A stretch of DNA of 64,000 bases from Psammoneis japonica. Taxonomy: Eukaryota. Below, one piece after another: positions 1,140 to 57,862 of the stretch (positions are counted from its first letter, which is position 1; each line of letters starts with the position of its first letter). The stretch is taken from assembly GCA_008632985.1 (NCBI GenBank), contig QPGO01000034.1:1-64000 (forward strand). Reading direction: 5' to 3'. The translations under genes were made by a program, and so were the position numbers. Under the pieces are notes generated by a model, which had not been told where the DNA came from, searched no databases, and worked only from the letters and a program-made list of their open reading frames with translations.

Positions 1140-2661
1140 AATCAGCCATTTTTACCGGGCAAGAGTGACGACAGCTGTGCATGACAAAATCACAATCAGC
1201 GCGAGGAGGTCTGGTGGACAGTGGATAGAAGCAATGGAAATGTTGGCCCTGGCGCCACTCACTTTCCTTCAGCGGCGGCAAGTCTCTGGAAAGACACCAC
1301 CGCAACCTGCACATTTTTGGATCTTGCCACACTGCTCCTTTTTCAGTTTTTTTCTTTTTTCCTGAGCCCGGGCACTTTGCACCCCCCCCAGGCTTTTTGA
1401 AAAACACTCTCCTCTGTCATCAAGCCCAGCTGGCGTGGTGGTGAGACACCATCAAAGCTCAGCTCCCAAAGAGAGCTTCTGAGCACCAAAGCATTTGGCT
1501 GCAAGTTCTCTGGCACCACACCACCCTTGCACCCATTTGAAGAAATTCCAGCACTGTCTCCTTGCTCCAACAAAAGCAGCCAAACATGTGGCTGGCAGCT
1601 TGTGCCAACAAGAAGAGACAGGCAGCACCACAGAGAGTGCACACACGCAAGAAGCAAATGCATCTGAAAAGTTTTTGTGGTGCCCGTCATGTCAACCAAC
1701 AGTTTGAGACACTCTCTTGCTTGGGTGAGCTTGGCAGAATTCAGAGCTTTTGTTGCTCTGTGAGCCCCACCAGAGAACAAATCTCCTCTCTGCTCATGGA
1801 AAAGTTTTTGCTGCTTTGAACACCCACCTTGTGTTTGTCATGGCACAAGTGACAGCCCTCGAGTTCATTCATTTCTGCAACAGCTGTGGTCTCTCTCAAA
1901 CAAACAACAGATCGTGCGCAGCATGTCCAGCAAAAGAAGAGACAACATTGCTGTTGCAAGCAATGACAAGATCCAGGTGGCTCTGTTTCTCTTGCTTGCT
2001 GCAGCCATTTGTTCTGGCACCACTCCAGCCTTGCAGCAGAGGAAATTTTTGTCTCGCATGTCGCGCTCTTGCTTTGGCAGCAGAAGCGGCGCACCTGACC
2101 AGTGCTTTCTTGGAAACCCCAGGAGCTGGTGCAGCAAAGGGGGCACAAGTGGATTCTCTCATTGTTGCTCAGCTTTCAAAGGAGCTTCCTCTCCAGTGCG
2201 ACGTGCCGCTGCATGATGACATGCTGTTGCGTGATGGTGCCCCGGCTCAGGGGGGGGTTGAGCAAGCTGTTGCCCCCCCATGGCAGCTCCAAGCTTGCCA
2301 GCAAACATCCAAGTCTTGCCCACTTTGGCACCCTTTTCAACTTGTTTGCTGCTTTTGAGGTGCTGTGCCCCTGACTTGGCTGAGCATCTTGAGCATTATC
2401 TTGCTGTGCTGCGCTGCCGGCCGCTGCAGTAAGTGTCTCTCGCGAGGAAAGCTCCGCGCGCAGATCTTGGATTTGCAATTTGTTGTGTGTTGCGTTGCGT
2501 CGCCTGTTGTGAAGGCTTTCTACCGATATTTTCGCTTTTGTCTTTCGTCGCGTCTGTCGCAAATTCTTCTGCTGTTTAACACAAAAACGACGATCGAAAT
2601 CGCTGGACCTCTGGTGAACTGGTAAGACGAAGGCGACGAAAACGACGGATACGGGACGCAC
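1140..2661 (-). pseudogene. Decayed coding sequence (TpA/CpG-depleted island), probably TE-derived
   Basis: Minus-strand ORFs 2176..2661 and 1741..2148 share a frame broken by TGA. The product is Cys/His-rich and Tyr-free. About 1140-2420 has almost no TA and little CG. Family not identifiable. Confidence 0.45.
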
Positions 2662-2744: not shown

Positions 2745-3698
2745 ATGAACGCCAGTGCACCAAAGGAGAACGAAAATCCCTTAGTCCACGAGGTTCGAAA
2801 TCAAGACAGAAGAGACCTGAAAAAGGCGCTTGGTTGGTCTCAAGTTGAGCGTTTGAACTTTGTCGGCAGCGACACCTACGACGATGCGAGAGACGGAGGA
2901 CCGATGCAGTTTTCGGCTACACGTTCATTAAACTCTTCCTTCAGTACAGAGGCGCGATCAATCTTTCTCGCTTTAACAGGTGCCGCTTCCACGTCGGGAA
3001 GTGGATCTGTTGCGCTTCTTAGAAACGCGGGCTTTTCGCTCCCGTCTGTGGAAGAGCTTTCGCCGTATCCTCCGCCGTTTCTGCGTCAACCAACTTTTGT
3101 ACCTGCAGCGTTAGCCGAGGAAGCGCCTCACGATCAAGCCCCAGAGCGACTCAGGGACAACTTCGATTCAGAAGAGGTCTTTGAAATCATTCGCAACATT
3201 CAGGATCCAGAACACCCCCTGACGCTCGAGCAACTCAACGTCGTGAACTTGAATCACGTTGAGGTGCACGATGATTTTGACCAAGGTTTCTCTGAGACTG
3301 TATCATCAGATACAGCTCAGCAAAAAACAAAGTTGTCATCTGTTGATGTTCGGTTCACGTGAGTGAGATAGCGATGGTGCTAGTTCCGGCTTGAAAGTGT
3401 CGGTTGAGTTGTTTATCTCACACGTGATCGAATTTTGCACTTTCTCAAATGCAGACCCACCATTCCCCACTGTTCCATGGCAACTCTGATTGGGTTGTGC
3501 ATACGAGTGAAGCTTCTTCGGTCTCTTCCTGCGAGATTCAAGGTGACCGTAAGAATCGAACCAGGTACGCATGCGAGCGAGAATGCGGTGAACAAACAAT
3601 TGGCTGACAAGGAGCGAGTTTGCGCCGCCTTGGAAAACGAGCATCTACTTGGTGTTGTAAATCGTTGTATTGAAAATGGAATGAAAACCAGTGTGTGA
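2745..3698 (+). CDS. CIA2: Cytosolic Fe-S cluster assembly component 2 (MIP18/FAM96 family); exons 2745-3358 and 3455-3698
   Basis: Motifs [51 protein letters not shown] and [30 protein letters not shown] intron at 3359-3454 joins the frames. Confidence 0.95.
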
Positions 3699-3953
3699 TT
3701 GCACATGCGTAATTTAAAACAACATGCAGTCACATAATACTCGTCATCCAAAGATTCGCGCAAAGTCCCATACCTTTGACGATAAACTTCCAAGTGTTGC
3801 TTAGCAGGAAATTGCTATTGGTGTATGTAAGCGACAGACAATCAGTAGCAGATGTTGATGTACGGCATGCTATGCAAAGAAGAAGAAGACATGTCGACTA
3901 CAAACAAGTAATGTTGATGAGGAGCGTTTTCAATCGTGTTTAATTTAGTTCTT

Positions 3954-6588
3954 TCATGATGGATTATCTCGCCATAAATGCAGTCCGCCAAACATTGGTT
4001 TTGGGGAGCATATGTTGGTGTTAATGTCCCCTTGTCCTAATCGACCAGAATTGTCGCCACAAGACAGTACGCTGCCTGAGGCTGTAACAAACACAGAGGA
4101 ATCGTATCCAGCGCAAGCATGCATCACACGAACACTAGATGATTCGGAGCTCGACACCTTTCTCGCGCCCGGTAGGGAATGGCACGAGTCCATTGAAAGT
4201 GCAAGATCGTTCTCTGAAACGGAACGACAATTCCTAATGCTTGAATCCAGCTGGCTTGAAAGTTGTATATCCACAGGTCGAGGCGACCATTCAACAACAT
4301 CATTGACACATGATTGCGCTATATTCTCAGAGGCGGTCTCGTCAGATCGATTTTCTTCGTTCACACATGCTTTCGGGGAACTAGTATATCCCAGCCTGTT
4401 GCCGGAAGCATTGCCCCATGCATAAACCTTTCCGTCTCGTGATAAGGCGACTGCGTGTCGAGCTCCGACACTCACAGATGCGATTTCCATTCACTAAGTC
4501 CGTATGGCCGTCAGGGAACAAAAGGCTCTTGGCTCGGTCGATTTCATAATTGCTGGACCACGCCCAAGTAACCCATCTTCGCTCGTCCCAAACGATAGAC
4601 ATCGTCCCGTTGAAGTTACAATAAAAGTGCACTTTGGTCCTAGCGCTACATGCGACGGATACTCGCCATGCACCTGTTCGTTTGGCGAGTGATAAGGAGC
4701 TGACTTGGCTGACAACGATTCATCTCCACCATCGAGTGATTGTAGCTGCTCCCAATCTTCATTGGAAGGATAAAATGATAGCTTTCGCACGACGCTTGGT
4801 GTACCAACGTTGTGGCTACGACGTGGTTTCGACCCCGTGCCATTCATTTTCGTCTGCTTTCTATTCTCTTTAGTATCAGCAGACGTACTTGTTTTCCTCC
4901 TCGAGTCATCTATCAAAGACATTTCATCGACTAGATTGTGTGGTCCTAGAGCACCATCGCCTGCAAAACCCCATGTGTAAAGTTCAATAGCACCAGTAGC
5001 ACGCCTAACCAACGCAGCCGAATGTTGCTCAGAAGCGCTTATTGCAAAAATTCCCGGTGTAGGCCCTCCTGAGGTTCCAGGCCACACACTGCAGTGAAGT
5101 GCGACACGTCTAGGCAATGGGACATCTTCTTCTTGGTCTTCATTCGCTGCGCATGCGTCTTTCACAACAGGGTTGACCAGTCCAAGTTTCATGCAATTAT
5201 TGCGACCAAAGCCGTACATTTGATGGTGATAAATGAGTTCAGATGGATCGGCAGTGGTTGAACTTGTTGTTGATTGGTCTAAGCTTTCGTCGTCGGTTCC
5301 GATTATTCTGGGAGGTGAAGAAACTACTCGAGACATTTCGACAAAAGAGTCACGCGTTGCGGCGTTTTTGCGCACGCTGCTCATTCGTCTACCGTCAGTG
5401 TTTACAACTACCAAGGAATGGTCCACTCCGGCTGCACATGCAATCGCTTTCCCTCCGTTTTCAAGTAGCGGGGTCACTATTGTTGGCGATGTGACGAATC
5501 CTTGGTTTTCGTCTTGGGATGATGATGTTCGCCCGATGCCAAGTTGGCCGTGATCATTGAGACCAAAAGAAAACAACAACGCCTCCTTTGATATGAGAAG
5601 AACATGAGATCCTAGTGGATGCGCAGAAACCTGTTTGATGGATATTTGCGCCAAAGACGAAAGAAAAGTTGGAACACCGTGTATCACCATCGGAGGAATA
5701 CTGGGGATCCAGCTGGCCGGAGTCTCCCGATCGAACTTGGGACTGGTTCGATATCGCCACCGAAACACATGGGATCTTTCGTATCCCTGCTGGAATCATG
5801 ATCTGGCGACGGTGTTATTGATGCATCCGACCCATCTGGTATGCTTAAATCTGTTCTTTGAGTTTGCGATTCGTTCTTTTCTCCTTCCAGTACAGCAGCC
5901 AGGTACGACGGTGATGCCATTTCTGTCTCTTCTTTTGACCGATTCCGTTCCTCTGAACCGGGTATCATATCGTTTCCGTTGTCCGCAAAGTGAGAGTAGT
6001 CAAAGCTAGGCAAAGGAAAGAGGTTGTCGCTTTTGCCGTCGGGGCCCAGCTGGTCCTGAAATGAATCTCCATCTGCATTAATTGGTGGTTTTGGCGAAAC
6101 GGGGACCGTGGAAGAAAGCGAGTCCGACGCCGATTCTTGTGCTACATTATTTTGTTTGGGTCTAACATCTGATTCTGGTACATCTGACGTCTCTCCTTTT
6201 CCGCCAAGAAGGCCGCCTCGTACATGCCTGTTGGCGACATCGAGTGATGCGTAGTCAGGAGCGCACAGATTCAGTACGGAGCTTTGATTCAAGTTCTCAA
6301 GACCACACCACAATAAATCAGAGTCATTCTCGTTCTTATTTTTCCTCCGTCTTCTTTCTGGCGGGATCATGTATGCCTGTGAAGACTTTCGGCACCGGCT
6401 CACCAGCACGTCGCCTGTCGCAGATAACAACACAGTTTCAACTTTGGACATTGCGACGCCTCCTGAAAGCTTAACGGTGGCGTCAAAGGCTCATCGGAAC
6501 GGGGTGAAAGAGGAGGATGCGGTTGGATTGACGGAGGTATTGCGGTAGTCATCGCGTCGCCAGCAGCTCTCTTTGACTTTACAACCAT
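3954..6588 (-). CDS. RCC1-repeat (beta-propeller) protein, read across several probable assembly frameshifts
   Basis: RCC1 blades FSFGLNDHGQLGIG, ACAAGVDHSLV, VSVGARHAVALSRDGKVYAWG..GNRLG and ACAGYDSSVFVTASGSVLSCGDNSGRLGQG, spread over ORFs 6400..6588, 5684..6451, 4494..5768 and 3954..4490. Confidence 0.85.
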
Positions 6589-7242
6589 AGTGAGACTGAA
6601 GCTTCGCCAAACTTTAATTCAACTCTCTGAGAGCTTTAAAATGAAACGTTGCGGCGGTGGTGGAGCTATTGTGGTTCACTCCCTTTTGGCGCTGGCCTTG
6701 TGTCATTTATCTGAAGCGTGTTGATCTCGTCGACGGCGGCGCTCTTCTTGAGGTCTTCTTGGTTGATGCTGTGGCCCGTTGGCATCACCTTTCATCAGTC
6801 GGCGAAACAATGCTCGGAAAACTTTTCATTCATGAAAATATTATGTTTAGACTAAAAATCGAAGATCTATATCACTTTTTGAACTTAAAGACATCTTATA
6901 TCTTTAATATAAATTATTCAATGAAAGCCGTTGAGATCATTAACTGTTATATGTGCCTTAATAAGGTAAAAAGTGAACATCCGTTAAATATTATATTAGA
7001 TACAAGGTTCATAATAAAAATTTGAAAGGCGAGCTTCACAAGCTGTCGTCACAACATCATCCTTTCCTCTTCGCTTCTGCCGCCCATGCCATCCCTTCTG
7101 TCTCATCATTCTTGCTTGGATCGATAGTGGGTTATGGGTTAGGTGTTACCGTGTAGGTGTCATCCCGCCCCGATGCCGATTGCTAATCACCCTAAATAGT
7201 CTCTGAGGGTTGTTAGAACATCGAACATCAGTCCTGCTTTTG

Positions 7243-9395: not shown

Positions 9396-9866
9396 CTAGA
9401 TTCCGTATCCACCCGAAATGCGGATCTCGTTCTCTTCTTTCTTGTAGGTAACAGTGACATGATTCCCCTTCAAAACAAGAGTATCGTATCGAATACTGGC
9501 GGTGACGTACGTGCCCAAGATCTCGTCTTGAAAGCGGTCTAGAGGGATCTTTCCTCCTTTGGTCTTGTCCTTGTCCTCGAGGTTCATGAAAGCACGAAAG
9601 GTCGGTTCGTCGCAAATCGAAGTCCAAGAGAAACGCGCGGCACCAGTCTTGCATTTAGGCTTCCACTTCATCTGCTTCTTGATCTGTTGGCTTGCCATGG
9701 TTCGTAGACGAGAAGCCTTTTTCGCAACTTTCTCGGGGTCAATTGACGGTGCCGCCACCTTTGCCTTTTTCAAGGCTTGGATGGTTTCATCACGCTTGGT
9801 GAGCTCAGAAATGAGCTCGGCCTTGGACATGTCATCGTACAGACGTTTGTTCGTAACGTTCTCCAT
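9396..9866 (-). CDS. Hypothetical protein (156 aa, N-terminal coiled coil)
   Basis: ATG at 9866 (MENVTNKRLY...ISGGYGI). Protein-like composition and codon usage. Confidence 0.65.
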   Translation of the reverse strand: MENVTNKRLYDDMSKAELISELTKRDETIQALKKAKVAAPSIDPEKVAKKASRLRTMASQQIKKQMKWKPKCKTGAARFSWTSICDEPTFRAFMNLEDKDKTKGGKIPLDRFQDEILGTYVTASIRYDTLVLKGNHVTVTYKKEENEIRISGGYGI

Positions 9867-10013
9867 CGTAATGCTCTTCTCTCGTGTTTTTGTGGTGTCG
9901 TGTTGATGGAGTTTGGTCAAGGGGTGAAAAGCTGGGCGACGGATGGAAAAGGTCGAAAAAAAATGGCGCGCTCCGTCTGTCCATCGTAGCGATTGCCGCG
10001 CCAGAGAAGATCC

Positions 10014-10247
10014 AGTCACGACTCAACGTCATTCTGGTCGCATCTCACGACTACAACCCAGACTCAGATTTTCTCTTCGAAATAATTAGCTCATCACAAA
10101 ATCGATTCAAACAGAAGCAACGACATTCGTCATAATTTCTAGACAACGACTTTCAACAAGCGTCTGTTTACCTCTGTCGCTATTCATATTGCTGCCAACC
10201 TCCGAGGTCTTGTCCATCCTACTCAGCTGCAGGACTGCATCTCGACT
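10014..10247 (+). repeat. Copia 5' LTR (AGTC...GACT)
   Basis: Direct repeat of 17022-17255 with 6 substitutions. Followed by a PBS candidate, (t)ggttgcagagacc. Confidence 0.95.
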
Positions 10248-10409
10248 GGTTGCAGAGACCAATTTACGCGTTGACGAGAGCTCCTGACCGAGTCATCGTC
10301 ACGGACGCTTTCGGTTTTTGATTTTGAAGCAAACCCGGGAAATGGCTGAGTCTCTCTCGCTTCTCTCGTCTTCACTCTAACAAGAACCTCCCATGCTGCA
10401 CTCTCCATC

Positions 10410-13400
10410 ATGGCTGCCATCGATCCAGCTGTTCTGGCGAAGGCGTTTGCCGATGCAATGGCCACCAACGCCGCGGCGACCGCTCCTCCGGCTCCAACCA
10501 AGCCGTTACGTGGTGGAATTCACCCAACCCACGGGGTTTACATTGGTGGTTCCAAACTCAACAACAACTGCGAACAATCCAACGACAGAACCTGCCGACT
10601 CGCCTCTCAGCGCCGTCATCCCAAGGCTCTCGACTCGATAGAACGATCTCTCCGCGATCAACAAGCTTCCGCAATGACTTCCAAGTTCAACGGTTGACTT
10701 GAGATTTCGGACGGTCCCATCAACGAGCTTGACAAGGACCATTTCGTCAAGACCATTCGAGATCCAGCAGAAGCCCACGGTCAGCAGACGCACTGCCATG
10801 TCAAGGACAGCGACGACAAGGTTCAATGCATCTTCGACCATCTTCACGAGTTTGCTGTGACCGATCTCGTGAACGAGTACACGGTCAGGAAAGCAGCCAC
10901 CGATGATGCCAAGTGCGACGAGATCGAGCTCGACGACATCGGGCTCTCTCAACTTCTCGTTCACTCAAGAATCACCAATGCCTTTCGCGAGAAAATCGAG
11001 ACCAAGTTCAACCATCTTTCGGACTACCAAGACTACCCTGGATCTGTTCTATTCATGATGGCTCTCGACACTTGCAACACCAGTGCTCTAACGGACATTG
11101 AGACGGCTGAGAAGCAGCTAGAAGACCTCAGTTTGGTTGACTGTCCCGGCGAGGATTGCATGGACTTTGCCACCGAAGCTCTTCGCATCGTGAAAATTGT
11201 GCAGACCGACTGCGCGCTTCCGGCGATTACAAGCTCCAAGCCGCTCCACAAGATCTCCTCTGCGTCCTCTGAACACTTCAATCGCCGCGTCTACAACAAG
11301 CTTGACGACGTCAAGGCTGTGGAACACAAGTGCCGCCTCAAGAATCCTGCTGACATCGTGTCCGACAGCGATCACAGAACGCTCGGACCGGTCGGCATCA
11401 TTGCGTGGATTCAAGAGCAACACAATGAACTCGTGAAGGACGGGGAATGGCCTGCATTAGTCGCCAAGCTACCCGAGAGTAATCTTTCGACTACGGATGA
11501 CCCTGGGAAGACGAAGCACTGTTGTGGTTGCGGTCTCGAGGGGTGCACCAAGAAGACGTGTCCGAAGTGCAACGCCAAACCGCCGCGCGACGATCCTCCT
11601 CCCAATCCGCCGCCTGCAGCCGACCCTTCCAAGAAGAAGAGGCGATCCATCGCTGCCTGGCGCACTAAATTTGACGGAGAAACGAAGAAGGACAAGAATG
11701 GCAAGGAATGGAAGTGGTGTGCCACGTGCAAGGCGAAGGGTGCCGACAAACCTGGAATCTGCCAGCAGCACTCTACCGCGGAACATGCCGACGACCGCAG
11801 GCAACCTCCCAAGGAGACCCCAGCAGGGAATTTGTCTTCCGTTGCTGATCCGGACAGTGGCGTGCCCATGGGTCCGCCCGCTCAGACTGCCAAGGAACCA
11901 GAGGGAGACGAATCCGACCCCAACGAGTTGGTTTTCACGGGAATGTGGTGCGCGGCTGCGGATCCCGTTGCCGACCCGGATTTCTGTTCCGCCCCTGTTG
12001 CCACTGCAATTGTTGTTACTCCGGCTTCTTCGGCCGAGAGGGAGAGCGATGCAGTCGTTAGCACTGAGGTGGTTTGCATCGAAACGAGCCCACCTGTGCT
12101 CACCTCAGTCGTGGATCCAGTCGTGTCTCCCATCGTGGTTGAGACTGTCACTCCCGAAGACGCCGATGACTTCTACGAATGCTCCGACGCTTTCTCTACC
12201 TTTGAAAACGAACCACCGGCTATTGAGTTGTTTCCGGCCTCGAAGCTGTACTCTGTCAAGCATCCAGATGAGTTCTTTGACGCTCCCGCACATTTGACGG
12301 ATGTGCTGTCAGACGACACCAAGTTAGATCTCATCCTTGAACACGACGTACACTTTGAAGACGCATGCTACGACTTGCCTCCGTGTGTTACGTATCGTGG
12401 CTTCGATTTCTACGATCCAGAGGTCCTGGATACGGATGATTGTCACGAGGACGTCGAAGACGAGCCCACTTCGCGTCGCTCACTCTTGGGTCGAGTCAAG
12501 CCATTCACATTCTGGCTCGCCGCCATGTTTTGGGAAACGGTGCTACATCTTTGCTTTGCTCCGATCCCATGCATCCCTCGAGCTCTTCGCCGCCAGCGCA
12601 AACTCCCAACTTTGCACGGGTTTCCAGCCTCCTGGATGGTCCCATCCGTTGCAGTGATGGCATGGTCAGCAGTTTGCGCCGGTCAACAGCCCGAGCATCC
12701 ATTCTCGAACGCACCAAGTCGTTTTTCGACCGCTGGCTCTCAAGTCTGCCACATTGTGGAAGAGCTAGATGACCGGATAGTGTTAGATACGGGGTCACTG
12801 TTCGAATGTCACAGGATCAAAGGCACGCAAGTACTCACCGAGTTTGTCGCGCGCCATCCGTCACACGCACTGAGCACTCGTCTCAAGGCCTGCTGGGAGA
12901 GCCTGGAAGTAGCTGAACGGTCTGATGCGATAGACGAATCAGCCTTCTTTGACACCCATGAGGAACTGGAACCTCTCGACGACCAGAAGCATTTCTTTGA
13001 CGCTCTTGAGGACTTCAGCCCGGATTTCTTCCGGTTTGACGAGCTCTGTCTGCCGCATCATGTCGTGGACACTGCCCATTTTCAAGATCCTGTGGAACTG
13101 TTGGAGGAAGCAGGTGTTAGACCAGTCGTCTATAATGCCTCCACCATCCAACTACTCACCGGACAATCACAAGCCGACCTCCTTGCATCCGATCCGCAGG
13201 CACTCATCGGTCTGTCGGACGAGGCTCTCACGGTCGTCATGGATGCTGGTGCCACGTTAGTCATTGCCCCCGACAAAGATGATTTTACGGGGCCTGTGAC
13301 TGTTCCCAAGAAACCCTTGCAGATCAATGGGATTGCCAACGGTCTTGCCATCCAGGGTGCCGGTCCGGTTGCGTGGGTGTTCACAACGCCGAGTGGGGCT

Positions 13401-16400
13401 GCCATCCAACTGAACACCATGGCATGCTACGTCCCTGGAGCCCGTCAGCGCCTGCTGTCGCCTCAACGCCTCTTCAACGAAGAGAAGGGGATACGTGGGA
13501 AGCATGAGGGCGATGAAACCACTTTCCGTTTACACATTGACGGGACAGGCAAGTTGGTCGTGCCATGTCATCCATCAAGCCACTTGCCTGTTGCGTCGAT
13601 GACCAAGGGCGTGTCTGCCGCTCCTCAAGTGAACCTTCAGGTCCTTGACGAGGAGAATCAAAACCTCACGGCAGGCCAAAAGCTTCTTCTCGAAATGCAC
13701 GCCCGTTTTGGCCATTTGAACTTTGGTCGCGTCCAAGCACTTCTCCGTGCAGTTCCGTTCCTTTCGAACCGTTTCAAGTCCACAGCGAAGTGTGACCACC
13801 CAAGATGCGAGGCATGCGAACATGCTAAAGGTCACAGACGCTCTCTTGGATCTACTCACAAGTCGACAGTCCCTGAACGCGACGGGGCCCTTCGAGCTGA
13901 CCATCTTCGACCGGGTCAGGCTGTCAGCGTTGATCATTTTGAGTCGCGCCTTTTAGGCCGCACCTTCGACTCTTATGGCAAAGCCACGTCCAAGCAATTC
14001 AAGGGCGGTTGCATCTTTGTCGACCACGCCTCTGGCTATGTCCAGGTCGAGCACCAACTGGGTTTCTCCGCTGTTGAGACGACATGCGTGAAGCAAGCGT
14101 TTGAGAAACATGCTTTGGACCACGGGGTCATCGTCCAAGAATTTCTTACCGACAGTGGCGCTTTCAAGGCCAACGCTTTTGTACAACACATGCGAGAACA
14201 TGAACAACGTCTCCGTTTTTGTGGAACCAACGCCCATCATCAGAACGGCGTCGCAGAGCGGGGCATCCGCAGCATCTCCAACATGGCGAGAGCGATGTTG
14301 CTTCATGCATCAATCCACTGGAAGGGGGGAATTGACAGCTCCCTATGGCCCATGGCAGTTTCTTGTGCCACGCACATCTACAATGTCACCCCAAATTCCA
14401 AAGGACATTGCCCAGCGGACATTTTCACCGGTTCGACAGTGCCAAGACATCGGTTGCGCGACATTCACACATGGGGATGTCCAGCGTACGTACTTGACCC
14501 GACCCTCGCTTCCGGGAAGAAGCTCCCGCGTTGGGAGCCTCGCACTCGTCGCGCTTTGTTCGTGGGACTCAGTGCCATCCATTCCAGTGAGGTTCCTTTG
14601 GTCCTCAATCTTCAAACTGGAAGTGTTGCACCTTAGCATCATGTGGTCTTTGACAATCTCTTCACTGCCGTGCCATCAATCGAGAGGGAGACGGATCCAC
14701 CTGATCACTGGGAACACTCATGCCTCAACCAATCGACATGCATCCCTCTGGAGAAGGATCAGGCAGTTCATTTACACGATGAGTGGCTTGCCCCTCCAGA
14801 GCGTCAACGCAGAGAACGAGAACCAGCCAGAGCAACACGCATTCGCGGGCATTTTGAGCCCACTCCATCGATTGCTGTGCCGGATTCACCCACTTCTCGC
14901 GACGACGTTGCCGATCGAGTCGCACCTGCGACTCAGCAGCCAACGCCACCAGTCCCACCTGCGACTCAAACTCCTACAGACTCTACGGACTCTACGCCAA
15001 TTCAGCCACCTGAACCTCAAGACAGTGACGGACTTCCGCCACCCGAAGCGCCGACGGAACCAACAGCTCCTCCCCCAGTCGAGACACCTCCTGTGACGAA
15101 TCCAGAGGGAGTGCCAGGGCTGCAACGGTCTTCACGGTCAACCAAGGGACAGCTCAACTCTGCCAAGTTTGTAGATGAGGTCTGCTTCAGCTCCGTCGAG
15201 GAAATGCCGCTGCCGATCGGACACGAGGCTCAACTGGCATATCTGGCGACTCTCGAGACGGATTTGGACAGTGGCACCATCAATGTCGGCGATCCACGAG
15301 CCTACGCAGCTAGCAAGAAAACCAAGGACCCTGACATGCCTTCGTCACACAATGCTCTGAAAGGTCCGGACTCCGACGAATGGATTGAGGTGATGAAAAT
15401 TGAAGTCAACGCACTCATGCATCGTCGAGCCTGGAAAGCAGTCGAGCGTCAGCCGCATGTGAATGTACTTCCAGGCACATGGGCACTAAAGCTCAAGAGA
15501 CTCCCAGATGGAACCCCTCTCAAGCATGAGGCCCGACACTGCGTCCGCGGTGATTTGCAGAAAGAAGGAGTCGACTGCTTCGAAACCTGCGCGCCGGTTG
15601 TGCAATGGTCCAGTGTCCGACTCATGCTCACTACGGTGTTAAAGGAGGGATGGACTGCACGACAGGTGGACTGTGCCACAGCCTTTTGCCAAGCTGATGT
15701 CGCCGAGGAAGTTCACACAACACCGCCGAAGGGATTTGCGCCAAGGTCGGGACTCAATGTGGTTCTCAAACTTTTGAAAGGACTGCACGGCCTAAAACAG
15801 TCTCCCAAGGGCTTCTACGAGAAGTTACGAGCTGGTTTAACCGAGCGCGGATGGGTGCCTTCAGCCATAGATCCCTGTTTGTATTTCAAAGAGGGCATGA
15901 TGTGTGTGGTGCATGTCGACGACACCGTTTTTGCTGGAGCTTCAGCTGAAGCTCTAGAAGCCGAAATTCGCAAGTTAGGAGTCTCCGACGACGAACATCG
16001 CCACGCATTTGAACTTAGAGACGAAGGAGAAGTCGGTGACTTTCTCGGCATCAAGATCGAAAAGCTCTCCGAGGGTCGATTTCTACTCACTCAACCCGGT
16101 CTAATTGACAAGGTCCTGCGCACCGCACAGATGCAGGATTGCAATGGAGCATCTACTCCAGCTCTACCTGCGGCTGTTGGTGCCGACACGGACGGCCTGC
16201 CTTTTGATGAACCCTGCGATTGTCGCTCAGTTGTTGGAATGTTGATGCACTTGGCAGCGAACAGCCGGCCAGACATTGCACATGCCACACATCAAGCAGC
16301 TCGATTCTCGTTTGCGCCCCGAGCATCCCACGCTGCTGCAGTGAAGCGGATGCTCCGACACCTCAAAGCAACTGCTGCTGAAGGTCTCATTCTCAAGCCT

Positions 16401-17000
16401 GCGCAAGATCATCGAGTTGATTGTTGCGTCGATTCTGACTTCGCGGGGTTGTTTGGTGTGGAAGATGGTCAAGACCCAGTTTCTGTCAAGTCCAGGACTG
16501 GACACCTTGTCTGCTACGCCGGCTGCCCGCTTGTCTGGGTGTCCAAGCTACAGACTCTTGTGGCATTGTCGACTGTGGAAGCGGAGTGTGTCGCACTTTC
16601 TCAAGCTGTGCGCGATCTCATCCCCATTCGTGAAGTTCTCAAGGAGCTCAACCACCACGCACTCGGAAAGTCTGGCCGCCAAAACCCAATCACGACTCAC
16701 TCCAAGGCTTTTGAGCTCGCAACCCAAGGCACCGATGACTCGCCTGTAGAGCAGAATGTCCCACCTGCGTCCGTTGTGCACGAAGACAACTCCGCGTGCC
16801 TCAAGTTCGCACGTGTGCCCAAGTTGTCTCCGCGAACCAAACACATCGGCATCCCGCACCACTGGTTTAGGACCAAAGTCGAACAATTGGAGATCGACAT
16901 CCAACCTGTCAGCACTCTAGAGCAACTAGCCGATCAGTTCACGAAGGGACTACGGACCGATGCGTTCCGTACGGCTAGAAAGGCTCTTATGGGCTGGTAA
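10410..17000 (+). pseudogene. Copia gag-pol polyprotein, one frame with two in-frame stops (TGA 10695-10697, TAG 14634-14636) and many Tyr->His/Cys changes
   Basis: Protease VMDAGA; integrase HARFGH..CEAC, VSVDHFES, LTDSG and QNGVAERGIR; RT LHGLKQSP and VVHVDD; RNase H VDSDFAG, EAECVALS, HEDN and LADQFTKGL. Confidence 0.93.
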
Positions 17001-17021
17001 GCTCTCTCGGTTGAGAGGGAG

Positions 17022-17255
17022 AGTCACGACTCAACGTCATTCTGGTCGCATCTCACGACTGCAACCCAGACTCAGATTTTCTCTTCGAAATAATTAGCTC
17101 ATCACAAAATCGATTCAAACAGAAGCAACGACATTCGTCATAATTTCTAGACAACGACTTTCAACAAGCGTCTGTTTACCTCTGTCGCTATTCACATTGC
17201 TACCAACCTCCGAGGTCTTATCCATCCTACTCAGCTGTAGGACTGTATCTCGACT
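17022..17255 (+). repeat. Copia 3' LTR
   Basis: Preceded by the PPT and followed by the TSD GATCC. Confidence 0.95.
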
Positions 17256-17536
17256 GATCCCCACGTGCGTCGATCTTCAACACATGGTGACGTAGCACAG
17301 CCAATCAAAAGGAGTTTACGAAGAACACCATCGACAGGCATCAAAGACATCCGCCGATGCGAGGCACACGATGTGAGAAAGAACAACAACAACCATCACC
17401 CATCACTGCTCTAGACTACTACAGTACCGGTACTTCTTGCCATCAAGGGACCCACATCAAGCGAGGGCCAAAAAACAACCATCGTCTACAACTTGTACAT
17501 TTCCAATTATTTTTTGTGTTGTTATCGTTCTTCATA

Positions 17537-20697: not shown

Positions 20698-22126
20698 ATG
20701 ACAGACCTTACCGTCTATGCAGAGGCGCTGATTGCAACAGTGGCAAGAGCGTTTTACGACGATGATGCCATTTGTTTGATTGATGTTTTATTGAGAGACA
20801 AATTTCTCCGAGACGATGACATGGCACCTCGGTTGTCGCTTCCGGCCAAACAGTTGCGAAGGACGCTCCAATTCTTACAGGAAGAGCACTTGGTGAAGTT
20901 CGAGCTGGTGGATGACTTGAGTTCAGGTGGAAGTCAGGCTACCAAGTTTTGGTACATTGATTATAATCATGCCGTCAACACCATACGATTGCGCATTCAT
21001 CTGTTGCAGAGAAAACTTGAGAAGGATGAAATGGCTGCGCGGTCAAGCAGCTTTTACCTTTGCCCTGGATACAAAGAAAAGCGATGCAATGGACGATACA
21101 CTGAGACCGAAGCGCAGCAGGTAGTGGATCTAGAGACGGGCTTATTTCTGTGTCAGGAGTGTGTCAATGACTACGCCAACAACCCAAGTCCGCCATCAAA
21201 GGAAACGTATACGCTGCGCTTGGTGGATAACACAGCCGCCCTCAAGCTTGCTGTAGATAACATGCGTCGAGTTAAGGTACAGCTTTCGACGAAAATGGTT
21301 GGGAACCACCAGCTTCGAGCCGGTATCTTTGACCTGCTGCAGAAGGTTAGGGTCAAAGGAAAAGGACCTCTTACGTCCAACCTTCCTTCAGAAAACTTTC
21401 AATTGGGTATCGGCTCAAAGCGATTGGCGGGGACGGGACGAACTGCAGGCAATCTGGCAAAGAAATTGGCACAGCAGGGCGTCGTTTCCAGATCGGAATC
21501 GGGCTCAATTTTGGGCGGCGCAAAACGCACAGAAGAGGGGAGCGGCCCGTTGTTTTTGAAGAATGCAATGGGACAGCAAATTCAACTCAAAGTGGAAAAA
21601 GGCGGTGGTGCAAGGGCAAACCTTCTGGCGACCAACCGACGGCGCCGAAGAAAGCTTATGGACGCTGCGGCCACAAGAGCCGGAATCCACGTGCCTCTTT
21701 ACTGGAAAATGAGAGAACAGAAAAAGCGAGAAAGAGAGGAGAAAGACGGAAAAACCGGTGCAAAGAAGGCACGTACAGAATTCGCAACTCTTGACTTTTT
21801 AAAGAATAACATCGGGCGCAAGGATGACTACGAAGAAAGACACGACCTACAAAAGCAAAATATTCAAGAAGAGGTAGTTTGCGACGACTCAGACGAAGAG
21901 ACCGATGCTCTCGTTTTGATTGATGATGTAGACATCTTGCTATCAAAGACAGAGGAAGAGCGCCGAACGATTTTCCAGGCACAGTACAAGCTAGAAGTTG
22001 AGAGGACAGTTGGCATTGCTGCAACCGGAGCTCTACGAGACTACGGAGAACTCCAATCCTCCAACTCTTGTTGCGGACGATGGAGTCGACGAAGATTTCA
22101 TTAATATCCCCTGGGAAGATGCATAG
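20698..22126 (+). CDS. TFA1: Transcription initiation factor IIE alpha subunit
   Basis: N-terminal winged helix (VARAFYDD..ICLIDVLLR..FWYIDYNHAVNTIRLRI) and Zn ribbon (CPG..C....FLCQEC). The acidic C-terminus DFINIPWEDA* (stop at 22126) is reached via a probable frameshift near 22030. Confidence 0.9.
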
Positions 22127-25100
22127 CTGCTATGAATTCAATGGTAGTGATTGTTCGCAATGCAATCCGAACGACGCCTGTGCATTCTGGAACAATGCGC
22201 CATCGTGTCTTCCCCTGGCTCTTGATTGGCCAAGGTGGCCAGTTTGAGAATTTCTTCAACCAGGCGGCTTTGCCCTACTCCTTGGCCTGGTGCAGGTGCA
22301 TTCCAAAAGAAGCTTGGCTCAGTCCATGAAAGCAACTGCCGCCTCGTCTCCGACATGCTTCCGGTGAGACTCGTCTTCTTCAACACGCCCCAAACACTCT
22401 CACACGAAAGACAAGGCGTCTGTAACAGTACTTACGATTCGGTCGCACAGTATGTGCATGGTGATAGTAATCAGATATGTAGTTCCCTTTAGGTTTACCT
22501 ATGTGATGTTGAAGAAAGCCATCTGTAGCTGTCGCTGATGTTGACAACTGTGCGATACATGTGCACCGTTTTTGTCCATAGGATTGCTTTCGTTTTCACA
22601 ACTACGAAACAGTCATGCTTGTGGATGAATCTAGAGTCCCATCTCCAGATCAGGCCAGATGCTGTGTTTAAATTGACCAGGTATGGAGAAACTCTAGCTA
22701 GCTTTGTGTCCATGTTAGAGGCCAAAATCACGTCAACAGAAGGGAACACAGCAAAATACAATGAAGGATGGATGAGGAGGGATTGTGTGACCTTTGGTGA
22801 CATGCACCACAATGACAACGTTTCACATAAATGCCACTTTTGTTCTTCAAAGGCCAGAGCAAATGACACTCTACTGCTCTCCAGCAGAAGCAGCTGCCTG
22901 GTGCTGCAGCACTCTAGAGCAGAGAGCCGATGAAACTCTACTCCAGCAGCCAAGTGAGTGCTGCAGCTTAAGAGTTGTGCATGAGAAAACAGCTTCAGAA
23001 CTGCTGAAGTGCCGTTTCTTTCCTTTCCATTGCAAAACAGTTTGAATTCCCACCACTGGCCTGCAGCCATGATTGCCAGGCAAGCATGAACCAGACCAGA
23101 AAGTTGGGGTTGTGTGAGTGCAGCAGTCAATGACCATTTCGTGTCCGTTGATCACCTTTGCCTGAGCACTTCCTGCATCCTCTCTTGCACGAGTCCTGGT
23201 TTTGACAAATTGATCCTGCAGTTGGACTCATTTGAGGAAAGTGACAATGCAACAAATTTTGTCAACAATGTGCCAATGCTGGCAGGTTGCATCATTGACA
23301 TTGAGTTCTTCAAGAAAAGATTGCTGGGTGGTGCTTCTCGCTGGCATCCCCATCATCCTGCATGCAATCCTCCTGGTGCAGCTTTTCAAGACCCCTTGTC
23401 AAACCCCAGCGAGTGTTTTAGATTTGAGGACAATGGTCATGATGAGAAGTCACTCCATTTCACAGTGGTGAGTGCAACTTTTGCTGTGGGTTTCTGCTTC
23501 CTTGTCATTTTGTGGAAGTTTGCCACTCTTCAGCAGCAGAATCAGATTCAACTCATCTGGCTTTCATGCAATTACACAACAGTCCTTGCTGAGCAGCAAA
23601 GATTGGCAAGCAACCTTCTTGAATCAAAGCCAGTTGACTCCAATGTTTCAAAGTCCCAATTTCATGCATCGTGTGTGGTTTCTGGCCCCTTTTGTCTCAG
23701 CTCTGGACACTGGCCTGCCAATTTGGAGGTCGTCACTTGGGTGTCATTTCCAACACCAACATTGCTGCTCATGTTGCTGGCAAGTCTGTTTTTGTGAACT
23801 GGTTCCTTGACTTTTCTTTCATTGTGTCCACAGCAAGGATGGGCCAAAACAGCAAAAACAACATTGCAGTTCTTGTCCTCATCTTTTCCAGCTTTTGGCC
23901 GCACCTCAAGTTGGTGTCTGGCCTGTGCTGTTCTTTCTGCCACCAACACAACTTGGTGTGTCAAAATGGGAGACAATGACTTTGCTTTGGCTTGATGTTC
24001 TCTCAAAGTTGTCAGTCGTTGACATGTTCTTTGCTGTCCTGCCAGCCATTGCAGTGCTCGACTTGTCATTTGTGCTGGCAGGCCCAACAAAAGGTTTTCA
24101 AACAAAGGCAATCCTTTTCATGTGAATCAGTGGTGGCACCACAGGGTCATTGGAGCTGGACAATGCAGGTGAAATGCTGAAAATGGTGTGCACAGGGATG
24201 GGATCCATCAAGAGTGGTGAGAGTGCAGAGATTCCCAATGGGGCTGCTCTTGTTGCAGCAACTCTGGAGCCATGCACATCCCACAACTGATGTGCACCAC
24301 CAACATGATTCCAAATCCATCACGTCACTTCTGCTTTCACCAGCAGTGTTTGAGGGAAGCATGGTGGTGACATGATTGCAGCCACCCTTGTGAGCAACTT
24401 GCAACAGCATGCTGCATTGGCTGTGTGTGGGGATGAGTGAGAAGAGAGAAGAGTTTTGGGGAGAGTGAAAAGAACAAGAGCAACAATTCACAATGATGAC
24501 AACAACAACAATGACAAACATGACTTGACTGTGGTGGGGACAATCCACTTTCCACTCTAGTGTGGTGGCTTTGACAAGGATGAGGCCCAACACCCAACAG
24601 GCACACTCCTGATGAGCATGCGGCAGGGCCTGGCCAGCTGGATGAGGCCATTGGCAGGTGTTTTTCACCTGTGGGCAGAGCATTTGAAAATGAGAAAGAA
24701 GGATGGGACTTCCCAGAGAATTGTGCACATTTTCCTGTGCAGAATTAGAGAGACCCATCAACCACACATGACTGCCAGCAGACCATTTTCAAATCCTTTT
24801 TTGAATGCCATGCATCCGGGTTTGATTCTGTTTCAGCACCATGTGGAAGCAACAGCAGCAAGGCAAACTGAAAAAGACTCAACTCTTGATTTCAACTTGC
24901 CTTTGGAGCAAAGTCATTTTCATCAATGATCAATGAGATGCGATTGCTCAACAGCAATGCAGCTGCTGCAAGAGTCTTCTGGGGTGGGATCCAGCTGAAG
25001 CTGTTGGGTGCCTTGGGCAAGACACATCATCACAATCAGCACATCAAAACCATGCAGTGTGCTCTCATGCACAAACAATTTGTCCTTGTTGTGGAGTCAA

Positions 25101-25584
25101 GTTCATGCAGTGACTTTCATTTTGCTGGCATCCATGGCTTGCAGGCAATGCCATGGAAATTGCACCAAAATTCAGATTGTTGGTCCTGCAATGTGAGACC
25201 ATGCAAAAGAGCCAAGTGTTTGCAAGTTTGAGAGTGAGAACAAGAGAGAAACAGAGACATTGCACAAAATGCAAAAGTGGCTCACCTTCAATTCATTCTC
25301 AGCCCTCCCCTTCCACACTTCATTTTGCAACTCCCACTGTTGTCATTTTAACACAAACAAACAAGTGCAAAGAAAATGCACAGCACTTGAAATGAGAAGC
25401 ATGCCGCTTCAAATGCTCTTTTCAAATGCTCCATTTTTTCCATTGTGGCAAAGTGCGGAGAGTCTTTCAACTCACCTCCTGGTTCTTGTTGAGTTTTTTT
25501 CAACTCGCCTCATGAACCCATGCTGAAGCACACAAGCCTCTGGCACAGGCAAACTGAGAATTTGCCCCCATTTGAAAGACACGA

Positions 25585-26080
25585 CCTGCCCACAAATCTG
25601 CCACCATCCTGAACTTTCATGAACAGTCTAATTCCACCACCACCCTAAAAATTCAGGACTGCAGCGGCCAGCAGCAACCACCATGGCTTAAGTTCACAAC
25701 TGCAATTCTGTCATGTCACGCAACACTGTGATGGTGTCCAACCACCTGAATTTGCCACCATCCTAAAAATTTGCCACTGGCTTAAATTCATGACTTGCAC
25801 AAATCCGCCACCATTCTAAAAATTCACAACTGACCCTGATTCACAACTGGCATAAATTCGCCACCATCCTGCACAATTTACGACTGGCCTGAATTCACAA
25901 CTGGTCCAACTCCGCCACCTGTCATGTGGCAACAGGACCCTAAATTCATGACTGGCCCAAATCCACCGCCATCCTAAAAAGTTCATGACTGGCCTGAATT
26001 CACAACTGTCCCAACTTCACCACCATCATAAAAAGCTCATGACTGGCCTGAACTCACAACTGCCCAAACTCTGCCACCTG
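25585..26080 (+). repeat. Degenerate array of short repeats (aaattcacaactggc / aattcgccaccatcct), possibly subterminal repeats of a DNA transposon
   Basis: Two short motifs alternate many times over about 500 bp. Confidence 0.75.
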
Positions 26081-34387: not shown

Positions 34388-34519
34388 GTCAGAACCAGTG
34401 TCCCTTAAAGGCGATTATATTTAGCCTGCTAAGTCGTCGTGCGTGTATAGTGCTGTCATCACACACATCATGGTGTCCCCACTCTCATGAAATCCGTACA
34501 ATGTTTCGTCCGTCCGACA

Positions 34520-49882: not shown

Positions 49883-49903
49883 CTCGCTTCCCCAATTGAG
49901 ACG

Positions 49904-57860: not shown

Positions 57861-57862
57861 TT

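Follow-up and report, generated by a model that had tools for sequence, protein, structure and literature searches.

In the genome of the diatom Psammoneis japonica, transposons and other repeats are probably the target of a mutation process that acts on chromosomal DNA and converts TpA into TpG or CpA. The evidence comes from a window of 64,000 nucleotides (contig QPGO01000034.1 of assembly GCA_008632985.1, positions 1 to 64,000), in which the dinucleotide context, its replication in a second element, the targeting of repeats and the saturated end state are documented below. A single type of event, A to G 3′ of T, visible on either strand, would account for both products, while host genes and every other dinucleotide would be spared. 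Acting after insertion, such a process would make the two LTRs of one element diverge at TpA only; building up in transposon lineages, it would turn the tyrosine codons TAY into CAY or TGY; and in old repeats it would reach saturation, leaving hardly any TpA and raising CpA+TpG to roughly double the expectation. A separate, slower decay of CpG to TpG/CpA, presumably through 5mC, would strip CpG from the old repeats. As TAA and TAG would be destroyed and stop codons never created, the mutated elements would retain long “ghost” reading frames even though the encoded proteins were ruined. To our knowledge, dinucleotide-specific mutagenesis directed at repeats, as in RIP, was long regarded as peculiar to fungi. 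The single report to date of a counterpart specific to TpA concerns the rhizarian alga Bigelowiella natans (preprint of Mettrop et al., bioRxiv 10.64898/2026.01.13.699255, dated 2026-04-14).

Table 1 Elements, LTRs and TpA-depleted blocks in the window (o/e, observed/expected)
Feature	Coordinates	Strand	Remarks
E1 5′ LTR	10014-10248	+	TpA lost at 10194, 10212, 10230, 10238 (under the supported polarity)
E1 gag-PR-IN-RT-RH polyprotein frame	10857-17000	+	2048 codons, single in-frame TAG at 14634-14636
E1 3′ LTR	17022-17256	+	TpA lost at 17061, 17195 (under the supported polarity)
Relic 3′ LTR of a related copia copy, with 39 nt internal	47344-47627	-	86% identical to E1
E2 3′ LTR	49592-49882	-	TG..CA termini; TA retained at all 10 differing sites (49615, 49618, 49623, 49650, 49707, 49724, 49726, 49847, 49859, 49874)
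E2 polyprotein frame	49904-54127	-	intact, 1407 codons: weak gag, RVT_1, RNase H, integrase
E2 5′ LTR	54201-54491	-	CA/TG at all 10 differing sites
Block A	1227-2396		0 TpA vs 68 expected; CpG o/e 0.27
Block B	22970-31077		28 TpA vs 551 expected; CpG o/e 0.19; CA+TG o/e 1.86
Block C	34498-46861		26 TpA vs 762 expected; CpG o/e 0.10
Block D	55737-56150		0 TpA vs 24 expected; 414 bp, CpG o/e 0.68
Block E	57922-59396		1 TpA vs 80 expected; repeat of 44734-46625

The first element, E1, has the organization of Ty1/copia retrotransposons: an LTR pair in direct repeat (235 nt each, 229/235 identical), a 5-bp target-site duplication (GATCC at 10009-10013 and 17256-17260) and an integrase region placed before the reverse transcriptase. 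A profile search of its frame gave a match to RVT_2 (E = 1.2e-33) and, upstream of it, one to gag_pre-integrs of 22 bits, below the cutoff; the rve domain was not found in the frame by this search, as erosion of the protein might lead one to expect. E1 has homologues among diatom-type copia elements (identity up to 53% over the full query and up to 61% at partial coverage). With its target-site duplication, frame and RVT_2 match, E1 is a bona fide insertion. Its LTRs differ at six sites (10053A/17061G, 10187T/17195C, 10194G/17202A, 10212G/17220A, 10230C/17238T and 10238C/17246T), all exactly as listed in an earlier first-pass annotation of this DNA, and at 6/6 of them one copy reads TA where its partner reads TG or CA. 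Under a random-transition model the chance of all six transitions falling in the CA/TG<->TA class is 1.8e-4.

The annotation had proposed inspecting the spectrum of further LTR pairs, and a second pair, belonging to the element E2, gave the same picture. E2 is recognizable as Ty3/gypsy by its TG..CA LTRs, a 5-bp target-site duplication (TTGAT at 49587-49591 and 54492-54496) and the domain order RVT_1 > RT_RNaseH > Integrase_H2C2 > rve. At 10/10 LTR mismatches TA stands against CA/TG (chance P = 1.7e-6), and the 5′ LTR contains 13 TpA vs 23 in the 3′ LTR. Across these two unrelated elements 16/16 LTR mismatches are therefore of the CA/TG<->TA class, all of them transitions with zero transversions (joint chance of a single mismatch class 3.1e-10). 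The DNA to the right of the mutated E2 LTR is TpA-poor (o/e 0.33-0.59), as against 0.95 beside the other LTR. The interior of this young gypsy element is free of hypermutation, with a TpA o/e of 0.64 and 17/21 conserved tyrosines retained.

No LTR change lies at ApA or TpT, all 16/16 being at TpA; a model of equal hits at WA gives P = 0.0066 for E1 and 0.00038 for E2. Error-prone repair of the Pol-eta type (WA>WG), one of the candidates put forward in the annotation, is disfavoured by these values and was rejected, since neither LTR pair shows a change at ApA. Decay of 5mC was rejected as the cause of the LTR differences as well: neither the 13 CpGs of each E1 LTR nor the 15 of each E2 LTR are changed (13+13 and 15+15; 0 of 28 per copy set differ). 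The statement in the annotation that none of the LTR CpGs differs (0/13 in E1) was thus accurate, but CpG is not immune, as is seen in the old repeats and in private CpG>TpG/CpA changes at nine sites of the E1 copy (relative to other family copies). The E1 interior still has a CpG o/e of 0.96 while its TpA o/e is 0.28; CpG decay is slower than the TpA process in this genome.

Two LTRs alone cannot give the direction of change, and the annotation had assumed it. Polarity was examined by comparing the RT-RH half of E1 with 120 homologues, conserved columns being taken as ancestral states. At 15 conserved tyrosine columns E1 has His (7), Cys (5), Trp (1) and Tyr (2), which means that TAY has become CAY/TGY (His/Cys) at 12/15; in the catalytic motif, a column with Tyr in 117/120 homologues holds His in E1, giving HVDD. 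Other residues of this half are mostly retained (G 23/23, P 29/30, L 37/40, R 23/24), the lowest retention besides Tyr being that of Ile (8/14) and Thr (12/20). E1 is the sole outlier in its His+Cys fraction at tyrosine columns, which is 0.80, whereas among the 120 homologues the median is 0 and no value exceeds 0.29. The N-terminal half retains 1/5 conserved tyrosines (Cys 2, Phe 2). A single TA>CA/TG step accounts for 24 of the 56 changed conserved columns in the RT half, cross-codon T|A cases included, whereas CA/TG>TA explains 0 and CpG decay 4. All the TG/CA doublets in this half (3/3) have a TA ancestor (TTA-Leu, GTA-Val and T|ATG-Met). As controls, E2 gave 7 TA>CA/TG, 3 CA/TG>TA and 3 CpG-decay columns among 95 changed ones, and the host gene for TFIIE-alpha, with Tyr retained at 10/12, gave 0, 0 and 3 among 30. 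The conserved columns, which record ancestral states, show that at the level of the lineage the change runs from TA to TG/CA; we infer the polarity at each single LTR site. The direction assumed in the annotation, TpA>TpG/CpA, is supported by the 24 vs 0 columns, the 3/3 doublets and the TA depletion of the old repeats.

This depletion is concentrated in five blocks of about 23.5 kb, which together contain 55 TpA vs ~1485 expected, have a CA+TG o/e of 1.6-1.9 and boundaries sharp to within 250 bp. Their TpA o/e is 0.00-0.05, compared with 0.28 in the E1 interior and 0.58-0.65 in host stretches, and CpG o/e is 0.10-0.27 in the four largest. Block B includes tandem repeats; block C is made up of old repeats, which contain long LTR-like units, and its copies differ mostly by CA-vs-TG doublets; block D sits in a partly depleted stretch (54492-57921, TpA o/e 0.19-0.34); and block E has an abrupt boundary with a normal host gene beginning at 59799. 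CA-vs-TG is the dominant double difference between repeat copies (29/54, 18/42, 24/59, 23/56 and 15/29), which points to independent decay in place after duplication. Runs of 8 (23001-31000) and 12 (35001-47000) consecutive scanning windows pass both thresholds of the B. natans preprint, the o/e used here being assumed equivalent to its Rho formula. Pfam searches of 25 block ORFs gave only two weak matches (E 0.036 and 0.85) and tblastn gave 0 matches outside E1 and E2, so that repetition is the sole ground for regarding the TA-free blocks as transposons. Within this one window the data support the targeting of transposons already put forward in the annotation, with host genes spared: the blocks are depleted, host stretches keep their o/e, and none of the 30 changed TFIIE-alpha columns is a TA loss.

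The converse reading, in which C>T at CpA and G>A at TpG create TpA through a RIP-like process or deamination of non-CpG 5mC at CAG/CAH, appears improbable to us. It draws on the relic copia LTR: wherever this LTR and E1 show a CA/TG<->TA difference, the relic has CA/TG, and it does so at all six sites at which the E1 LTRs differ; parsimony then favours CA/TG as ancestral at 4/6, and under the TA-loss reading the relic must have lost TA convergently. Two E1 LTR sites show TA, TG and CA in the three copies available, a pattern most parsimoniously derived from ancestral TA. The stop codon of E1 is a proven change of the converse kind, since the TAG at 14634 derives from CAG (Gln in 24/25 long homologues; C in other copies, 2188/2222 depth) and certainly runs opposite to TA loss. 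Under majority rule, seven single E1 sites have a private TA where nearly all other copies have CA/TG, vs one opposite. Polarisation succeeded for a single one of the seven, 16516, where TA is ancestral: the TAC (Tyr) of E1 agrees with the homologues (F51/Y48/C1) and the TGC of other copies is derived. By the same homologue columns, CAC of E1 at 16779 is derived from TAC. The first tests made, outgroup parsimony at 4/6 sites and majority rule over the other copies, seemed opposed to TA>TG/CA. DNMT4 enzymes are related to fungal RID, and DNMT4/RID-like genes of unknown function are reported in 31/60 diatom species, which would suit the converse reading. Against it, however, stand the 0/56 columns fitting CA/TG>TA and the 24 fitting the reverse, and the old repeats are TpA-free and CA/TG-rich, the inverse of the RIP indices (TpA/ApT 0.00-0.18 and (CpA+TpG)/(ApC+GpT) 1.8-2.5 in affected DNA); on these inverted indices, the 0/56 columns and the diatom host, fungal RIP was rejected as the cause. 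Despite their CpA/TpG excess, repeat copies differ at only 7 CA<->TA sites vs 41 at CpT plus CpC. Finally, ten hits in a 291-nt E2 LTR next to a 1407-codon frame with no stop would require strict confinement of the converse process to the LTR.

TpA loss could also arise by APOBEC-like editing of adenines in the cDNA during retrotransposition, so that the LTRs would already differ at insertion and lineages would gain changes at each round. All ten E2 changes are in the 5′ LTR (two-sided chance 0.002), where they form strand-coordinated runs, T>C, then four A>G, then five T>C (P ~0.05 for three or fewer runs), and many losses of the E1 interior are seemingly common to its family. The TpA o/e of this interior (10249-17021) is 0.28 vs ~0.68 for the inferred ancestral LTR, the family is present in high copy number (794/2995 aligned run contigs at least 99% alike), and most interior losses seem to be common to it; either the family multiplied after its reverse transcriptase had lost most of the conserved tyrosines, or the copies converged. 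Reverse-transcription geometry predicts sense A>G among 5′-LTR-specific changes and T>C among 3′-LTR-specific ones, but both E1 LTRs and the E2 5′ LTR carry A>G and T>C alike. The CA-vs-TG doublets, moreover, show that old tandem and dispersed repeat copies underwent independent decay where they lay, and the B. natans process is reported in the preprint to strike integrated DNA during vegetative growth. We give editing of cDNA little credence.

Systematic base-calling or consensus errors at modified A/T (TpA) and 5mC (CpG) in a long-read assembly are an explanation we likewise hold to be quite unlikely. Both lost dinucleotides are palindromic YpR steps, which symmetric DNA modification would mark. 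Contigs of the read runs X1 and X2 were compared with the assembly over E1 and its flank. The X1 contigs (flank depth 53-65, longest contig 315 kb) point to accurate reads in their depth and length. They carry the derived CA/TG states in other copies of E1, and at most listed sites the private letters of E1 occur at about single-copy depth; at the doublets 10829/30, 11373/4 and 15637/8 the remainders are 43-46 vs the flank depth of 53-65. At 14/40 listed sites (doublets counted per position) X1 has no depth for the letter of E1 itself, which would fit an artefact, but zero depth is not evidence of absence because contigs drop rare variants. In X2, which is from the same sample as the likely source of the assembly and is thus independent of the assembly and not of the sample, a contig with the unique 3′ flank of E1 has five mismatches over 10164-10248, identical to the five LTR differences there and hence to 5/6 of all. 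Neither the nearby gypsy element nor the host genes are affected, again contrary to an artefact. That an ordinary transition spectrum landed on CA/TG<->TA sites by chance is a negligible prospect: the original finding comprised only six sites, selected after the fact in a scan of very large extent, but the second pair, with the probabilities given above, effectively refutes it, and the protein and composition evidence agree with a TpA process.

For the TpA-directed process favoured here, the most likely chemistry would be the work of an enzyme that deaminates adenine at TpA in DNA, yielding hypoxanthine, and chromatin or small RNAs may guide it to silenced or foreign chromatin. ADAR and TadA/ADAT prefer an adenine preceded by U or T, ADAR acting on dsRNA, while APOBEC3 acts on cDNA. 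The annotation knew of no comparable process described as genome defence; TpA-only hypermutation of integrated viruses has, however, been shown experimentally and de novo in B. natans (Mettrop et al., bioRxiv 10.64898/2026.01.13.699255). According to the same preprint it arises in culture in some of the lines, ~1000x faster than background, low-TpA coding sequences are enriched in RT and DDE domains, and the candidate enzyme, as yet untested, is ADAT2-like. The signature described there and that of the diatom are identical, with A>G/T>C changes alone, TpA alone, TpG or CpA according to strand and foreign DNA only, and both go against RIP as well as the common GC>AT bias; in this window we likewise found transitions only, TpA only and confinement to foreign or repeated DNA. 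They differ in the host (a diatom, hence a stramenopile, vs a rhizarian chlorarachniophyte), in the targets (LTR retrotransposons and old repeats vs giant-virus and virophage insertions), in the depth of depletion (o/e 0.00-0.05 over 8-12 kb vs the reported 0.45 in an NCLDV region), in the loss of CpG that accompanies TpA loss in the diatom, and in the evidence, sequence comparison here vs de novo observation in B. natans.

The diatom would be the second major lineage with TpA hypermutation and transposons a new class of target, and its case is cleaner and more extreme, with two LTR retrotransposon superfamilies and fully saturated relics. This suggests an old, widespread eukaryotic defence. 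A DNA adenine-deamination defence guided to transposons and integrated viruses, ancestral to SAR or at least shared by stramenopiles and rhizarians, is a tentative idea that we think rather doubtful at present. If true, it would mirror RIP in function, killing elements through the removal of TpA (in codons for Tyr, Ile and Leu and in TATA boxes) and leaving stop-free “ghost” frames, and in this diatom it would outpace 5mC decay and run to completion. In genomes with TpA hypermutation, dating by LTR divergence would be wrong, gene callers would predict long stop-free ORFs in dead elements, and homology searches would miss transposons devoid of Tyr and Ile codons. A natural DNA adenine deaminase acting at TpA would interest the base-editing field.

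Like fungal RIP, the diatom process is directed at repeats and transposons, concerns one dinucleotide, affects both chromosomal strands and can reach saturation. In RIP, however, C>T changes at CpA generate TpA and leave the DNA AT-rich and full of stops, whereas the process described here destroys TpA, keeps GC content at ~0.5 and makes zero stops. Methylated transposons are known in diatoms (Hoguin et al. 2023, PMC9998398), and CpG decay through 5mC resembles the TpA process in its TpG/CpA products and its restriction to silenced repeats; it is evident in the old blocks and at the nine private E1 sites, but leaves the LTR differences unexplained. The restriction systems APOBEC3 and ADAR, which the B. 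natans preprint discusses as well, also deaminate bases and so hypermutate retroelements and other foreign nucleic acids. They act on single-stranded cDNA or RNA and give strand-asymmetric changes, whereas in the diatom both strands of a single LTR are struck and copies resident in the chromosome decay where they are.

The direct repeats flanking E1, a Ty1/copia element, are identical at 229 of 235 positions, and the six sites at which they differ agree exactly with those listed in the first-pass annotation, each pairing TA in one copy with TG or CA in its counterpart, with no difference at the 13 CpG present per LTR. The repeats are accompanied by a target-site duplication and are genuine LTRs of an inserted Ty1/copia element. 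Its frame, interrupted solely by one TAG stop, encodes an RVT_2 domain (1.2e-33) with a weak gag_pre-integrase match upstream of it, and the RT half matches diatom-type copia proteins, one of them from Fragilaria, at no more than 53% identity over the full query and at 61% at best with partial coverage. If transitions are assumed to be random, the probability of all six differences belonging to the CA/TG<->TA class is 1.8e-4. TpA is more depleted in the interior of E1 than in its LTRs. A scan of metagenome contigs for exact matches to a 37-nt invariant stretch of the E1 LTR yielded 0 loci.

Features of the window discussed in the text, with exact TpA counts for the TA-free blocks
Feature	Position	Strand	TpA observed	TpA expected	Remarks
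E1, 5' LTR	10014-10248				235 nt
E1, 3' LTR	17022-17256				235 nt
E1, target-site duplication	10009-10013 and 17256-17260				GATCC, 5 bp
E1, frame	10857-17000				2048 codons
E1, TAG stop	14634-14636
E2	49592-54491	minus			Ty3/gypsy
E2, left (3') LTR	49592-49882				291 nt
E2, right (5') LTR	54201-54491				291 nt
Relic copia LTR	47344-47627	minus			86% identical to E1 LTR
TFIIE-alpha gene	20698-22101
TA-free block A	1227-2396		0	68
TA-free block B	22970-31077		28	551
Tandem arrays in block B	25749-28348				periods ~105-300 nt
TA-free block C	34498-46861		26	762
TA-free block D	55737-56150		0	24	414 bp
TA-free block E	57922-59396		1	80
Nest of old repeats	34736-46625 and 57863-59731
Intermediate stretch	54492-57921
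ORF in the intermediate stretch	55657-56511				284 codons
Single N	308

A comparison of the window with itself revealed a second LTR pair, unrelated to that of E1, which belongs to E2, an intact Ty3/gypsy element with TG..CA termini, a target-site duplication TTGAT and a frame of 1407 codons encoding RVT_1, RNase H and integrase domains. Its LTRs differ at ten sites, all ten of the CA/TG<->TA class, with no transversions and no change at the 15 CpG per LTR (P=1.7e-6, and 3.1e-10 for E1 and E2 jointly, random transitions being assumed). Since an independent pair shows the identical class, the signature is real and belongs to the genome rather than to one element; in the two pairs together 16 of 72 copy-level TpA have changed against 0 of 56 copy-level CpG, and no other position has. 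The interior of E2 is not hypermutated (TpA o/e 0.64) and is rich in CpG (o/e 1.47). The TA state at all ten sites sits in the left LTR, and all the changes lie in the LTR adjoining TpA-poor DNA (right flank, TpA o/e 0.33-0.59); the flank beside the other LTR has a TpA o/e of 0.95, and both flanks were contiguous prior to the insertion. This pattern would fit a process that is confined to a domain or spreads out from one. Tandem 12-nt units at 49847 and 49859 (counterparts 54456 and 54468) are changed at the identical position in the same LTR, which hints that local context has a strong influence or that certain TpA sites are near saturation.

A pair of LTRs by itself cannot show which state is derived, and outgroups were sought. 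The relic LTR has CA/TG at all six E1 sites, and parsimony based on it indicated CpA>TpA at four of the six; it was rejected as an unreliable outgroup because TpA has been lost in the relic itself, which carries CA/TG at every CA/TG<->TA difference from E1. At two of the six sites TA, TG and CA occur across the three copies, a triplet that would derive most simply from a TA ancestor. Variants were also taken from contigs of the public sequencing run X1, the best-supported 40 of 699 variable places being used, none of them in the LTR; they include 26 single sites and six adjacent TG-versus-CA doublets. With the majority state read as ancestral, the single sites comprise nine CpG>TpG/CpA, seven CA/TG>TA, one TA>CA, four other C>T and three other A>G changes and two transversions. 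This majority rule over the E1 family copies (seven TA gains versus one loss) was overturned by homologue columns, as the other copies have derived TpA losses in common. A RIP-like C>T process, favoured after the relic and majority tests, was dropped on composition and protein conservation: it would leave old repeats TpA-rich, which the TpA-poor blocks of the window contradict, and the indices of these blocks are the inverse of RIP. Ordinary C>T mutation occurs too, since the TAG stop of E1 certainly came from CAG, in the direction opposite to the main process: other copies read C at 2188 of 2222 depth, and Gln occupies the position in 24 of 25 long homologues.

The RT-RNaseH half of E1 (787 amino acids) was aligned with 120 homologues, a column being kept if it held 40 or more sequences of which 70% or more agreed. 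At the 15 conserved tyrosine columns E1 has Tyr at two, His at seven, Cys at five and Trp at one, and the codon changes TAY>CAY and TAY>TGY correspond precisely to TpA>CpA and TpA>TpG. The catalytic-motif column, Tyr in 117 of 120 homologues, is His in E1 (HVDD), at what we take to be the position of the YVDD motif. Other conserved residues are far better retained (G 23/23, P 29/30, L 37/40, R 23/24, C 5/5, H 5/6), the lowest retention being that of Ile (8/14) and Thr (12/20). Reversion of a single TA>CA/TG change restores 24 of the 56 changed conserved columns, including cross-codon T/ACN>T/GCN (Thr>Ala) and T/ATG>T/GTG (Met>Val) cases, against none for CA/TG>TA reversion and four for CpG decay. 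In the gag-PR-IN half Tyr is retained at one of five conserved columns (Cys 2, Phe 2). Two controls analysed in the identical way are normal: 17 of 21 conserved tyrosines are kept in E2 and 10 of 12 in host TFIIE-alpha. Of the 95 changed columns in E2, 7, 3 and 3 belong to the TA-loss, TA-gain and CpG-decay classes; of the 30 in TFIIE-alpha, 0, 0 and 3 do. E1 is the sole outlier with respect to its 120 homologues, the His+Cys fraction at Tyr columns being 0.80 (median 0, maximum 0.29), and none of 240 homologous TE proteins of other organisms has a fraction of 0.3 or more at such columns, so that this set yields no evidence of the process in other taxa. P0103, a protein of another organism homologous to the E1 RT half, carries His at 5 of its 17 conserved-Tyr columns and has a low Tyr content (1.7%), a weak hint that a relative elsewhere may experience the same process in mild form.

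Individual sites were polarised in the same manner. At 16516 the window has TAC (Tyr), in line with the homologue residues (F 51, Y 48, C 1), and the derived state is the TGC of the majority; at 16779 the homologue columns indicate that the CAC of the window derived from TAC. Three doublets in the RT half all have a TA ancestor: TTA-Leu became TCA here and TTG elsewhere, GTA-Val became GTG and GCA, and CGT/ATG became CGT/GTG and CGC/ATG; a CpG ancestor (TCG, GCG and C/GTG) was rejected, as the residues found in the homologues are those expected from TTA, GTA and T/ATG. The direction TpA>TpG/CpA, proposed in the first-pass annotation, is supported by the conserved columns and by the almost TpA-free old repeats, and we infer that each of the 16 LTR differences is a TpA loss.

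Dinucleotide composition was scanned in 1-kb windows, and exact TpA counts were compared with expectation for each of five blocks almost free of TpA. Summed, these cover ~23.5 kb of complex sequence with 55 TpA against ~1485 expected; CpA+TpG amounts to 1.6-1.9 times expectation, and CpG o/e lies at 0.10-0.27 in every block except D, where it is 0.68. The host-gene stretches of the window have a TpA o/e of 0.58-0.65. Block edges are sharp, with one TpA in 59251-59500 versus six in 59501-59750, directly ahead of a transporter gene. By their sequence the blocks are most readily regarded as old repeats. CA-versus-TG is by far the commonest double difference between their repeat copies (29/54, 18/42, 24/59, 23/56 and 15/29; other types at most 3), as is expected when, once a repeat has been duplicated, the palindromic YpR step decays independently and either way in every copy. 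TA-free sequence has no TAA or TAG, so the blocks hold many long stop-free ORFs, which gene callers are likely to annotate, and these are nearly devoid of domain matches: a Pfam search with 25 of them gave two weak matches alone (E 0.036 and 0.85), and tblastn of E1, E2 and the 120 homologues against the window gave 128 HSPs, none outside E1 and E2. The intermediate stretch, in which TpA o/e is 0.19-0.34 and CpG is nearly normal at 0.73-0.97, suggests, as does E1, that TpA loss precedes CpG loss; the 284-codon ORF there had no Pfam match. The nest of old repeats is built of LTR-like units of 1.5-1.9 kb with a common 125-nt end motif in five copies, and a copy of the 1.9-kb unit lies on either side of the relic LTR and E2, which suggests nested insertion.

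The best reading of these sequences is a TE- or repeat-directed chromosomal conversion of TpA to TpG or CpA. Within this genome it acts more quickly than CpG decay does, the interior of E1 having a TpA o/e of 0.28 and a CpG o/e of 0.96, and it never creates stop codons, so that the long E1 frame persists despite the ruined protein. Targeting of TEs is upheld within this one window, TFIIE-alpha and host stretches being unaffected. Adenine deamination at TpA, or a miscoding modified base there, would be the most economical chemistry. Error-prone repair of the Pol-eta type (WA>WG), another candidate of the first-pass annotation, is disfavoured, as there was no change at ApA among the 16 LTR events (P=0.0066 for E1 and 0.00038 for E2 if all WA sites were equally likely to be hit). 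RNA editing or editing of single-strand cDNA is likewise disfavoured because both strands were changed within a single LTR (in the 5' LTR of E1 A>G and T>C occur twice each, in that of E2 six and four times), which argues for conversion of resident duplex DNA. The 16 events show a weak preference for flanking bases (3' neighbour T 8, C 5, A 2, G 1; unmutated adenines T 42, C 27, A 24, G 35), and no motif beyond TpA is claimed.

The TFIIE-alpha gene matches diatom proteins (Ditylum, Cylindrotheca, Seminavis, Nitzschia and others) with 83% identity at best. X1 contigs aligned on 9500-16990 numbered 2995, 794 of them at least 99% alike, and their summed depth was 53-65 in the unique flank, 3000-6800 inside E1 and 13187 in the LTR bin, so E1 belongs to a high-copy family. 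Contigs of two other runs, X2 and X3, covered almost nothing; an X2 contig with the unique 3' flank had five mismatches over 10164-10248, as many as the LTR differences of that span. That the TpA signature arose as a base-modification artefact in a long-read assembly is unlikely, as X1 contigs hold the derived states, and also the private letters of the window at single-copy depth at most listed sites. Most TpA losses in the E1 interior seem to be common to the family, which may have multiplied with an eroded RT, perhaps by mobilisation in trans, or its copies may have converged on the same outcomes.

The observation of TpA-specific LTR differences is thus confirmed and replicated, and the earlier interpretation of direction and targeting is supported, with novelty reduced: the suggestion that such a process was undescribed is out of date, as a 2026 preprint on Bigelowiella natans (Mettrop et al., bioRxiv 10.64898/2026.01.13.699255) reports mutation-accumulation lines in which A>G/T>C changes, every one at TpA, make up 230 of the 231 mutations of two integrated viral regions, at a rate of ~6e-7 per site per generation and in some lines only. 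The preprint also describes enrichment of RT and DDE domains among low-TpA coding sequences and proposes an ADAT2-like protein. A full-text literature search did not find a TpA process described in diatoms; RID-related DNMT4 genes, of unknown function, are reported in PMC9998398 for 31 of 60 diatom species. The stramenopile host, the LTR retrotransposon targets and the saturation appear to be new, and the evidence supports the diatom retrotransposon case as a further instance of a very recently recognised genome defence. When the B. natans thresholds given in the preprint (Rho_TpA <=0.43, Rho_CpA+TpG >=1.52, at least three consecutive windows; bioRxiv 10.64898/2026.01.13.699255) are applied here, with our o/e values taken as the equivalent of Rho, runs of 8 and 12 windows pass.
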